From a virus (Duplodnaviria; Heunggongvirae; Uroviricota; Caudoviricetes): a stretch of DNA of 4,944 bases. Under the pieces are notes generated by a model. It was given only the letters and a program-made list of their open reading frames with translations. It had not been told where the DNA came from and made no database searches. Location: the IMG/VR virus record IMGVR_UViG_2713896780_000003; one strand, written 5' to 3'. Made by a program: the position numbers and the translations under genes. Positions 217 to 4,583 of this stretch are shown piece after piece (position 1 is the stretch's first letter; the number at the start of each line of letters is the position of its first letter).

Positions 217-845
217 TTAAAGCTGCATCAACCTTTCCACCAGTTTATCTCTGCGAACAACAAACCAACCATTGGCTCTCGCCAGTTCCAGCCATGACTC
301 AAGGGAAATAACAATATCATCATCCCGTAACTGAATTGTGGAAACAGTGACACCGCCTCTCTGATAACAGAGAACTCGCGTGTCGTAACTTTTCTGGCAT
401 GAAACTGGCGCTGACGGATCCTTTTGTCTGAAATAGCAGTCTTCCAGCTTTTCGAACACATCCCACGCCTGATCGGTTTCCAGCATTTTGGCATGACGGG
501 CTGCTCCGCGTTCTGTCCAGAGGATGAGGGAGCGGGCTTTCGGGGAAATTTGTAACCCTCTTAAAGATGGTTGCAAATTTTGTGAGTAGTTTAAAGCTAC
601 CCGCAAATTTTTCAGGGCATCGCCAGCCACTTTGAAAAAATGCTTTCCTTCAATAAAGCGCTCAGCATTTCTGGCGTAGTTATTTTGAATGTTCTTAACT
701 CCAGCACCGTACAACTGCGCCAAAAGTTCGGTGGTAATAACAGGAATCTGGTTATGGGTGATCGGGNNNNNNNNNNNNNNNNNNNNNNNNNNNNNNNNNN
801 NNNNNNNNNNNNNNNNAGAGTTTCAACAGAAATTTGAGTTGTCAT
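217..845 (-). CDS. ORF6N-domain antirepressor-like phage protein, interrupted by N-run 767-816
   Basis: ATG at 845..843 (MTTQISVET) is preceded by GAGGG about 8 nt upstream. After the N-run the open frame reads ...PITHNQIPVITTELLAQLYGAGVKNIQNNYARNAERFIEGKHFF...ILWTERGAARHAKMLETDQAWDVFEKL and stops with TAA at 219..217. The LYG...RN.ERF...LWTE.GA pattern matches my recollection of the ORF6N antirepressor-type domain. The frames either side of the N-run differ, so the true length is unknown. Confidence 0.55.
767..816. other. Masked or unknown sequence (50 N)
   Basis: Run of N characters inside the ORF6N-like gene. Confidence 0.95.
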
Positions 846-3051: not shown

Positions 3052-3162
3052 AGTGCGGGTGCGTTGAGGATGCCTGACACATCAGAGGTGGCGGGAGATT
3101 ACTCCCNNNNNNNNNNNNNNNNNNNNNNNNNNNNNNNNNNNNNNNNNNNNNNNNNNCTTCAT
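3050..3162 (-). CDS. Small ORF with strong start signals, interior masked by N-run; 3' end uncertain
   Basis: ATG at 3162..3160 (MK...) is preceded by AAGGAG 9 nt upstream. Past the N-run one frame stays open to TAA at 3052..3050, directly abutting the terminator; the frame implied by a literal 50-nt gap stops earlier, near 3082. Confidence 0.25.
3107..3156. other. Masked or unknown sequence (50 N)
   Basis: Run of N characters inside a small minus-strand ORF. Confidence 0.95.
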
Positions 3163-3214
3163 AGCCTGCTTCTCCTTGCCTTTCGGCACGTAAGAGGCTA
3201 ACCTACGTGTGTAG

Positions 3215-3244
3215 AGCATAGATATGGCCTCAGATTAATGTTAA
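3215..3244 (-). promoter_or_regulatory. Candidate sigma70 promoter with operator-like repeats for the small ORF at 3162
   Basis: Minus strand reads TTAACA (plus 3244..3239) then 18 bp then TATGCT (plus 3220..3215). The -35 lies within one of two TAATGTTAA direct repeats (plus 3236-3244 and 3262-3270) that flank the imperfect palindrome GCGTCTTGCCGGACGC. Confidence 0.3.
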
Positions 3245-3356
3245 GCGTCTTGCCGGACGCGTAATGTTAACTGGGGCTTTTCTCTGTCTGCCTTACGGTG
3301 GCATGCCCGAGGCAGATAGCCTCAAGCACCCGCAGCAATTCTACTTAACTCTCGCT

Positions 3357-3449
3357 TTACCGCANNNNNNNNNNNNNNNNNNNNNNNNNNNNNNNNNNNN
3401 NNNNNNNNNNNNNNGCACCTTCCATTGCCAGTGAAATATCATCCGACAT
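3357..3449 (-). CDS. Small protein (about 30 aa if the gap is literal), interior masked by N-run
   Basis: ATG at 3449..3447 with AAGGAGG 4 nt upstream, reading MSDDISLAMEGA before the N-run. All three frames stop within 42 nt after the gap; the frame consistent with a 50-nt gap ends with TAA at 3359..3357. Confidence 0.35.
   Translation of the reverse strand: MSDDISLAMEGXXXXXXXXXXXXXXXXXXR
3365..3414. other. Masked or unknown sequence (50 N)
   Basis: Run of N characters inside a small minus-strand ORF. Confidence 0.95.
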
Positions 3450-3484: not shown

Positions 3485-3568
3485 TTACCCCCACCGACAA
3501 ATAACATATACTAAAAAAGCGATAGCCATAGCAACGCCTGTAATTGCAAATGCTTCAGGCCAGTTCAT
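3485..3568 (-). CDS. 27-aa hydrophobic, probably membrane-spanning, peptide translationally coupled to the DUF551-like gene
   Basis: ATG at 3568..3566 overlaps the upstream TGA (ATGA), with AGGAGG 7 nt upstream. Product MNWPEAFAITGVAMAIAFLVYVICRWG has a roughly 18-residue hydrophobic core; TAA at 3487..3485. Absent from the ORF track because of its length. Confidence 0.45.
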   Translation of the reverse strand: MNWPEAFAITGVAMAIAFLVYVICRWG

Positions 3569-3918
3569 TGGCGCACCTCCTGCGGCGGTTCTGGTAGCGG
3601 CATCCAGTGTGTGGCTTCACACACGATGGGCGCACCGAAATACTGCGCATACTGGAAGTCACCCGTATTATCCAGGTTAAAACCTGTAAACTGTTCACCC
3701 GTGCTGGACACAAACAGTTGTACATCAACACCAACTGGCGGCATTCGCTCACTACAGCTTATCCAACCATCCGGAGTTACCGGAGAATTGCCAGCCTTGC
3801 GCATGGCAATCTCCATGATTTCAACCATATCTCCTGGTGGAATTTTACAATGCTGACCAATATGCCTCTGCTGCCTGGCATATTCGAGGATGTGCTCCAG
3901 CTTGATACGATTAATCAT
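3565..3918 (-). CDS. DUF551-like phage protein (117 aa)
   Basis: ATG at 3918..3916 with GGGAG 7 nt upstream. C-terminal region ...GWISCSERMPP...THWMPLPEPP matches my recollection of the DUF551 signature. Start overlaps the upstream stop (ATGA). Confidence 0.6.
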   Translation of the reverse strand: MINRIKLEHILEYARQQRHIGQHCKIPPGDMVEIMEIAMRKAGNSPVTPDGWISCSERMPPVGVDVQLFVSSTGEQFTGFNLDNTGDFQYAQYFGAPIVCEATHWMPLPEPPQEVRQ

Positions 3919-4296: not shown

Positions 4297-4312
4297 CCGC
4301 CCTTTCGGGCGG
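4297..4312 (-). other. Intergenic GC-rich stem-loop with GNRA loop, flanked by a Shine-Dalgarno sequence and a 4-codon mini-ORF
   Basis: Minus strand reads TAA-tgtc-AGGAGG-CCGCCC-GAAA-GGGCGG-ta-ATG AAA AGT GAC TGA. No U-tract follows in either orientation, so it is not a classical terminator. Confidence 0.4.
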
Positions 4313-4322
4313 CCTCCTGACA

Positions 4323-4535
4323 TTAATCGTTGTGATAACTCATAGCTTCATTTGCAGCATCAACTGGATCAACATCCCACCAGCAATAATTTGGGTCGAC
4401 ACCTTCAGGTGTCCACGGCTCTAATTCATTTTTTGCCGCATTCTCGTCGCCAGTAATTTTAAAAATCTGCTCTGAGAACTTTTTCACCCACTCGTTATAT
4501 TTTTCAGCGTTAATAACTTTCTGTGCGTTTGACAT
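4323..4535 (-). CDS. Small acidic hypothetical protein (70 aa)
   Basis: ATG at 4535..4533 with a G-rich stretch (GGGGG) about 8 nt upstream; TAA at 4325..4323. Product MSNAQKVINAEKYNEWVKKFSEQIFKITGDENAAKNELEPWTPEGVDPNYCWWDVDPVDAANEAMSYHND has about 14 acidic versus 6 basic residues. Confidence 0.55.
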   Translation of the reverse strand: MSNAQKVINAEKYNEWVKKFSEQIFKITGDENAAKNELEPWTPEGVDPNYCWWDVDPVDAANEAMSYHND

Positions 4536-4583
4536 TGATATACCCCCGGTTAAGGATTAAATTTTTAACAGAGCTAAATTTAA

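Follow-up and report, generated by a model that had tools for sequence, protein, structure and literature searches.

Results

Organization of the locus

The window analysed here is a stretch of 4,944 nt from a tailed virus (Caudoviricetes; IMG/VR record IMGVR_UViG_2713896780_000003). On its minus strand, it contains a small open reading frame (ORF) that runs from position 3568 to position 3485, with the ATG start codon at 3568–3566 and the TAA stop codon at 3487–3485. The 27 codons in front of the stop encode the peptide MNWPEAFAITGVAMAIAFLVYVICRWG. A preliminary description of this DNA had reported a gene for a 27-aa peptide at 3485–3568 and left its strand unstated; the coordinates proved to be exact, the 27-aa ORF was confirmed and it could be assigned to the minus strand. 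Immediately upstream lies a gene of 117 aa on the same strand (3565–3918), which encodes a DUF551-domain protein (Pfam PF04448, E 1e-15) and whose stop is probably coupled to the start of the peptide ORF. The junction between the two genes reads ...CAATGAAC, and the minus-strand region, read from 5′ to 3′, is ...CCGCAGGAGGTGCGCCAATGAACTGG....

At this junction, the ATG of the peptide ORF shares bases with the TGA stop of the DUF551 gene in a four-nucleotide ATGA overlap (3565–3568, minus strand), an arrangement that would allow translational coupling. Furthermore, a Shine-Dalgarno (SD) sequence AGGAGG is located at 3581–3576 of the minus strand, exactly 7 nt before the ATG and within the codons for the final Q-E-V of the upstream gene. 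Both signals had been noted at first reading, and both are present as described. The combination AGGAGG-N7-ATG occurs twice in the window compared with 0.03 occurrences expected from shuffled sequences, and the second copy is a real gene start too. An ORF of such a size is uninformative by itself, because the window contains 80 ORFs of 20 aa or more.

The window region matches lambdoid prophages from O145 and O157 strains of E. coli with 100% identity. In the identical RefSeq record NZ_CP028379.1 (our locus L001), a DnaC-like ydaV gene is followed by DUF1627, DUF977, several hypothetical genes and then DUF551, after which come an unannotated gap with the peptide ORF (L001 4233–4316), a 34-aa hypothetical protein, Hok/sok, DUF1367 (NinB-like), DUF1364 and DUF1133. 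This gene order assigns the peptide ORF to the early accessory region (nin type) of the prophage, in agreement with the prophage early region originally proposed. Three runs of 50 N in the window (767–816, 3107–3156 and 3365–3414) stand for 3, 162 and 113 nt, respectively, by comparison with NZ_CP028379.1. These masks leave the peptide ORF untouched but conceal the 3′ half of the 34-aa gene and the greater part of hok, and window distances measured across them are not true distances. In the reference strain RM9872 (L001 2103–3316, compared with window about 4300–4540), an IS3 insertion truncates a 70-aa gene that is intact in the window (4323–4535, minus strand); the window thus comes from a related prophage that lacks the IS3 insertion of RM9872.

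The 34-aa gene is a second small membrane-peptide gene, located 35 nt downstream of the peptide ORF on the minus strand (window 3415–3449, running into the mask; L001 4352–4456; RefSeq WP_001278450.1). It encodes MSDDISLAMEGALAVIAVVGVYCLVVFLMDRLGN, has its own SD sequence AAGGAGGG and is found downstream of the peptide in 64 of 129 loci. The idea that it is a paralogue of the 27-aa peptide was rejected, as the two share no sequence similarity. Compared with the arrangement in phage 933W, the 34-aa gene resides on a 175-nt insertion (L001 4311–4496; window about 3490 into the mask), which is bounded by the 11-nt direct repeat GGGTAAAAACG, the first copy containing the TAA with which the 27-aa ORF ends, and terminates in the perfect 22-nt palindrome CGATATGGGAATTCCCATATCG. 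The insertion looks like a small inserted cassette.

Further downstream lies a complete hok/sok type I toxin-antitoxin locus (window 3157–3331 on the minus strand, plus mask; L001 4533–4857), in which sok matches RF01794 with 112.6 bits and Hok is encoded at L001 4702–4857. For the terminator hairpin after hok (L001 4866–4947; window about 2917–2998), Rfam gives weak matches below threshold to isrK (24 bits, E 0.01) and to rsmX, which probably reflect the hairpin alone.

The DUF551 neighbour and the genes that follow it

DUF551 has been reported to occur in Ea22 variants as a portable domain at the C-terminus (PMC10834534). Loci were also picked solely by similarity to the DUF551 protein (80 fetched, L142–L221, of which 78 were usable), and an intact standard peptide gene follows the DUF551 stop in 27 of the 78, or in 29 when two altered open copies are counted. 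Among the 30 occurrences of the peptide in this set, the frame is open in 29, with a length of 27–33 codons, and one carries a premature stop. Disruption of the frame within otherwise conserved regions, which the preliminary description had named as the sign of a spurious gene, is therefore confined to a single case. The altered copies carry W3R (L171), P4T together with a 33-codon frame (L169), and a stop after codon 2 (L205).

The DUF551 genes typically end with ..PLPEPPQEV[KN] directly before the stop; the sequence GGAGGTG lies in their final codons, and the stop shares bases with the start of the next gene. This next gene varies, and in some phages it encodes unrelated small hydrophobic peptides, such as MMPPVKVVIITLVMIVIARIMSGEIVWIW, MDSFAKYTIIDWIAFLQVLLIWF... 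and MNKCNALLYAMVIGFGLAAGIRVYITWESL.... Since DUF551 ends couple to many different genes, strong start signals alone are no argument for the peptide; they are a general feature of this recombination junction in mosaic Ea22-like genes. The earlier wording of near-ideal start signals thus stands insofar as the signals are present and conserved in the family, but it has to be qualified because they are partly a general trait of DUF551-gene 3′ ends, which couple to any next gene.

The surroundings of the peptide gene differ between lineages. In the lineage of the window, the 34-aa peptide gene and then hok/sok lie downstream, while in 933W-type loci hok/sok follows directly; elsewhere, the downstream genes are small genes toward xis/int, P1-type genes or, in a metagenomic phage, a RuvC-like gene. 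The hok/sok locus is located 0.2–0.4 kb downstream in many loci and was counted downstream in 67 of 129, many of them redundant. In several lineages, the next gene begins 1–4 nt past the peptide stop. All positions of the peptide gene are in early or accessory regions. DUF551 and the peptide as an obligate pair was considered and rejected, as DUF551 is present in 16 of 39 upstream clusters and the peptide follows 27 of 78 DUF551 genes. Likewise, hok as a required partner was rejected, as members of the Klebsiella type and the P1 type have no downstream hok. The comparison of these neighbourhoods indicates that the peptide gene is an independent module.

Conservation and selection

A tblastn search against 50,697 phage records gave full-length matches in 99 of them, with 52–88% identity. 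When phage records, IMG/VR and one genome per species were combined, 135 ORFs were recovered from 137 loci; the check for conservation proposed at the outset thus yielded homologues in about 135 phage or prophage loci. The carriers comprise 933W and other Stx phages, P1-like Punavirus phage-plasmids, virulent rV5-like Vequintavirinae and Klebsiella prophages. The presence of the gene in virulent phages argues for an action during lytic growth, beyond lysogens.

Nearly all of the 135 ORFs are 22–28 codons long, the exceptions being one of 41 and one of 65 codons. Two main classes could be distinguished, a 27-aa class from Escherichia, Shigella and Salmonella with the pattern M[NTS]WP[ED]AF..VG..M......VY.ICRWG and a 22-aa, Klebsiella-type class with the pattern MDWPTAF.IVGCAFAIAWLFRS, and P1-like phages as well as metagenomic phages of 36–52% G+C contain intermediates of 23–28 aa. 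Profile-profile comparison with hhalign showed that the two classes are homologous (probability 96.7%, E 3e-10). Across the whole family, M1, W3, P4, A6 and G11 are invariant, and F7 and A15 almost so. The family signature is an N-terminal M-x-W-P-x-A-F-x-x-x-G followed by a predicted Ala-rich hydrophobic helix.

The amino acid sequence is under strong purifying selection. For the 27-aa class, 22 distinct nucleotide sequences gave a median dN/dS of 0.155 with dS at saturation (median 1.26), and the median dN/dS of 17 sequences of the 22-aa class is 0.112. The pooled pN/pS amounts to 0.30 (27-aa class) and 0.19 (22-aa class) in the real frame, compared with 0.84–1.50 in the two shifted frames. 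In addition, the variable alignment columns cluster at third codon positions, and the length is kept with no indels among about 135 loci from very different phages.

The start is conserved as well. It overlaps the upstream stop in 133 of the 135 family members, through ATGA (4 nt) in 90 and through TGATG or TAATG (1 nt) in 43. The upstream genes themselves fall into 39 clusters at 70% identity, of which only 16 contain DUF551; three others encode dATP/dGTP pyrophosphohydrolases and one a ClpX-type zinc finger, and the remainder have no Pfam domain. An SD core, scored as at least 4 nt located 5–11 nt before the ATG (mode 7), is found in 36 of 40 distinct upstream contexts.

Purifying selection, the start overlap and the SD site are three independent signals that the reading frame is used. 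The ORF stands above chance because its frame, length, start overlap and SD site are conserved and the sequence is under purifying selection in many phages. It is therefore close to certain, as far as comparison of sequences can tell, that the peptide ORF is a genuine coding gene, conserved and under purifying selection, and the view that a real small gene is present in this prophage now has strong comparative evidence in its frame, length, start and selection. The opposite explanation, that the ORF arose by chance or that the conserved element is non-coding (for instance an RNA, promoter or recombination junction), could draw on the very short length of the ORF among the 80 of the window and on its being annotated almost never. 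However, the low, frame-specific dN/dS, the retention of length and start at dS > 1 and the unrelated flanking contexts all speak against it, and dN/dS brings it close to refuted. An RNA element in particular was rejected, as there is no Rfam match (E up to 1), the fold does not exceed shuffled sequence in stability (z = 0.39), and the stretch from DUF551 to the next gene contains no terminator.

A second possibility is that the act of translation matters and the peptide does not, so that the ORF would serve as a coupling or spacer ORF against Rho-dependent polarity or would set the expression of the downstream gene or hok. The universal overlap of 1 or 4 nt with the upstream stop and the next gene starting 1–4 nt past the peptide stop in several lineages fit such a role, as does a putative hok promoter, which in 933W-type phages, by comparison with hok of plasmid R1, begins no more than about 10 nt past the peptide stop. 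Nevertheless, strong purifying selection acts on the amino acid sequence while synonymous change is saturated, and the invariant residues are shared by classes with no common downstream gene. A mere spacer would not keep W3, P4, G11 and the hydrophobic pattern, which makes this explanation very unlikely.

The overlap could also be read in another way, with the peptide frame as a C-terminal membrane anchor that is joined to the upstream protein by programmed frameshifting. The peptide frame does differ from that of the upstream gene and overlaps its end, and in some contexts it is open for 24–30 codons upstream of the ATG, but in others it is closed 3–7 codons upstream. Furthermore, ATG and SD are conserved throughout and the upstream proteins are mutually unrelated. 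We consider such a fusion highly improbable.

Some members deviate from the general pattern. A 25-aa allele, in which W26 is changed from TGG to TGA so that the last two residues are missing, occurs in 9 IMG/VR loci (among L010–L089); together with the one premature stop mentioned above, it implies that the very C-terminal residues can be dispensed with, or that some cryptic prophages can do without the gene. In a Pseudobdellovibrionaceae MAG of 63% G+C (L009 2501–2698), a 65-aa ORF opens with MTWPEAFAIVGVAF, which equals the family consensus over 14 residues, and continues with a hydrophilic tail; the likeness reflects either convergence or distant kinship with a longer form. A 431-nt Xanthomonas pisi contig (L008) bears a peptide ORF identical to that of 933W with a near-identical flank, and both this contig and the 'Actinobacillus phage' pPE4 (L005) carry typical modules of E. 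coli Stx phages or lambdoid phages, which suggests contamination or a wrong host assignment for these two records.

Predicted membrane helix and topology

Residues 6–24 of the peptide (window 3497–3553, minus strand) form one hydrophobic segment of 19 residues with a Kyte-Doolittle mean of 2.45 and a Wimley-White octanol value of -6.9 kcal/mol, in line with the single transmembrane helix predicted at first reading. Aromatic residues are located at both helix ends, namely W3 on one side and Y21/W26 or W18 on the other, and an acidic residue on the N-terminal side and a basic residue on the C-terminal side are conserved in both classes. The peptide is hence predicted to be a single-pass inner-membrane helix. 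The positive-inside rule and the analogy with the Pf3 coat protein suggest an N-out, C-in orientation, the net charge difference across the helix being small. On one side of the helix, the conserved G11 and a ladder of alanines (A6, A13, A15 and A17) would form a small-residue face suited for tight helix-helix packing. In having fewer than 50 aa, one predicted transmembrane helix, a position in an operon and a sequence under purifying selection, the peptide resembles the small single-pass modulators of membrane proteins.

A small hydrophobic peptide may also be a membrane toxin, depolarising or pore-forming like the type I toxins Hok, Ibs, ShoB and Ldr or like a pinholin, with a role in killing, abortive infection or lysis timing. 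Size and hydrophobicity are as in known small toxins, the window contains a row of three small membrane peptides (the 27-aa peptide, the 34-aa peptide and Hok), and hok/sok is the frequent downstream neighbour described above. On the other hand, no antisense RNA family was found: the ORF has no match in Rfam at a threshold as loose as E 1, the sok family matches the neighbouring hok locus only, and the sole antisense promoter-like site is weak (9 of 12 consensus positions) and, compared by eye with the 933W variant, seems not conserved. The mRNA is not significantly structured (z = 0.39), it has a strong, accessible SD, and the gene is coupled directly to ordinary early genes. Members of the Klebsiella type and the P1 type have no hok nearby. 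Searches of Pfam, NCBIfam and PADLOC returned neither Hok/Gef (PF01848) nor any other toxin, and a single genome tolerates as many as five intact copies with good start signals. The helix itself is uniformly hydrophobic with aromatics at both ends, like a stable anchor, and is not amphipathic. As for a holin or pinholin, the neighbours are DUF551/Ea-type genes, hok/sok, NinB-like genes and xis/int, never lysis genes, and the C-terminal tail comprises 3 residues. The preliminary description had offered toxicity, host killing, superinfection exclusion and modulation of membrane proteins as candidate roles. Taken together, a toxin is unlikely here and is the less likely role compared with a membrane effector that acts by helix packing.

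Prevalence and annotation

A blastn search with the ORF interior only found the gene in 718 of 5,426 complete E. coli genomes (about 13%), at 1,525 places, with a maximum of five per genome and 45 on plasmids. Multiple copies are often found in O157, O145 and O111 strains. About 196 plasmid records carry the peptide, mostly non-mobilizable P1-like phage-plasmids of 95–100 kb.

Despite this distribution, the gene is hardly ever annotated. No feature lies under the match in 60 RefSeq E. coli records sampled evenly by rank from 726 matching ones, and the peptide is unannotated in the records of 933W, Stx2 phage I, Stx2a_WGPS2, vB_EcoM_TH18, pPE4, the Klebsiella phage phi8.3, PhiR12_4, SJ46, 813R1, RM9872 and pRHB03-C12_2 (11 records in all). 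An exact look-up among approximately 15 billion proteins found the peptide called once (ETJ68712.1, 'hypothetical protein'). One variant is called in a few GenBank accessions, as 'bacteriophage protein' or 'hypothetical protein', and occurs in 79 contigs, and a P1-type variant is called once. Neither a name nor a function is given to the peptide in the databases and texts searched. The label 'unannotated' given in the preliminary description consequently holds for the identical RefSeq record, the 60 sampled RefSeq records and the 11 records inspected in detail, next to sporadic calls in GenBank. Standard annotation misses the gene, which spans 84 nt with its stop codon and so falls short of the default minimum gene length of 90 nt in Prodigal; the NCBI pipeline omitted it from each RefSeq record inspected.

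Pfam, NCBIfam, PHROGs v4 and PDB gave no significant match, the scattered sub-threshold hits differing from member to member, and Rfam and PADLOC contain no family over the peptide. No family member is present in the ea22–ea8.5 gap of lambda or in the K-12 prophages Rac, Qin, DLP12, e14 and CPS-53, including the region after yfdT; the yfdT product ends with ..QEVK like the DUF551 proteins, a likeness read from the C-terminal end only. The small-protein studies of K-12 are not known to list the peptide, for which we take its absence from lambda and these five prophages as the reason. It is also absent from the supplements of the ribosome-profiling study of EHEC Sakai, whose screen took ORFs of at least 30 aa and excluded shorter ones. 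The catalogue Entero67K comprises intergenic small ORFs of Enterobacteriaceae under purifying selection, often transmembrane (PMC11188072), and the peptide was not found in the part of its supplementary text accessible to us. The paper on hokW-sokW does not mention a small ORF upstream, and a full-text literature search for the motif 'WPEAF' returned unrelated words only.

Discussion

The best overall explanation of these data, to which we assign a probability of about 0.5, is that the ORF is a genuine, translationally coupled phage gene whose product acts as an accessory membrane effector through helix packing. The peptide would be transcribed within the early operon of the prophage, which in the window would comprise replication genes, several small genes, DUF551, the peptide, the 34-aa membrane peptide, hok/sok and NinB-like genes. 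Ribosomes that terminate at the upstream UGA may restart at the overlapping AUG with the help of the embedded SD, or, alternatively, initiation may occur de novo on this SD site. The product would then insert into the inner membrane as a single-pass helix, with its short acidic N-terminus (E5) toward the periplasm and its conserved Cys-Arg-Trp end at the cytoplasmic face. There, the small-residue face, with G11-x-x-x-A15 and A13-x-x-x-A17, could pack against another membrane protein or against itself. We infer that the outcome would be an altered host membrane function during phage development, such as DNA entry and exclusion or the stability and activity of a membrane protein, and not plain killing.

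A more specific role would be that of a superinfection-exclusion factor, which blocks the entry of incoming phage DNA at the inner membrane in the manner of T4 Imm or HK97 gp15. An accessory, non-essential membrane peptide shared by temperate phages, phage-plasmids and virulent rV5-like phages would suit this task, and the differing small membrane peptides that fill the same slot after DUF551 resemble the interchangeable cassettes typical of phage competition genes. However, the peptide has no homology to a known exclusion protein, and neither it nor its two upstream neighbours give a hit in PADLOC-DB. Moreover, the operon is repressed in lysogeny and no promoter of its own was found for the peptide gene, so that protection would be limited to lytic growth unless read-through occurs. 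Exclusion as such is thus quite unlikely, and the broader role of a helix-packing membrane effector is preferred. Extending this role to the whole family, we tentatively propose, at somewhat less than even odds, that the 'MxWPxAF' peptides constitute a family of small phage membrane peptides which has gone unrecognised and is systematically missed by annotation, and that they act on a specific inner-membrane target of the host and measurably affect phage development, exclusion of other phages or the lysis-lysogeny and induction behaviour of Stx phages.

The gene shows that a strongly conserved phage gene can stay invisible even though it is carried by the reference phages 933W and VT2-Sakai. 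With one ATG and one 27-aa product, it offers a cheap and well-defined small-protein target in Shiga-toxin phages. If the peptide indeed modulates a host membrane protein or excludes phages, phage-host biology would gain a new and very small effector; should it lack a phenotype, it would still be a clean example for better annotation of small ORFs.

Comparison with known systems

Among the small single-pass inner-membrane regulatory proteins of enterobacteria, MgtR, MgtS, AcrZ, KdpF and CydX come closest in design: they likewise have fewer than 50 aa and one hydrophobic helix, their genes lie within an operon or close it, and they frequently escape annotation. Where known, they act by packing of the helix with a larger membrane protein. 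In contrast to these proteins, with which it shares no sequence similarity, the peptide is phage-borne and absent from the K-12 prophages. The peptide shares with the type I toxins Hok/Gef (PF01848), Ibs, ShoB and Ldr a small size and a hydrophobic membrane character, and it resides on a mobile element, but compared with these toxins it has neither an antisense RNA nor a folded, closed mRNA, and it is coupled through a strong SD. T4 Imm, HK97 gp15 and P22 SieA are also accessory inner-membrane proteins of phages that are encoded in early or moron regions, whereas they are larger and unrelated in sequence.

The small ORFs of Entero67K, with 15–70 codons and mostly hydrophobic or transmembrane products, belong to the same general class, and of the ORFs in that catalogue that are codirectional with their upstream gene, about 13% have their start no further than 10 nt from its stop (PMC11188072). 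The peptides described here form a new, unnamed family within the phage-encoded small membrane proteins and the translationally coupled small ORFs.
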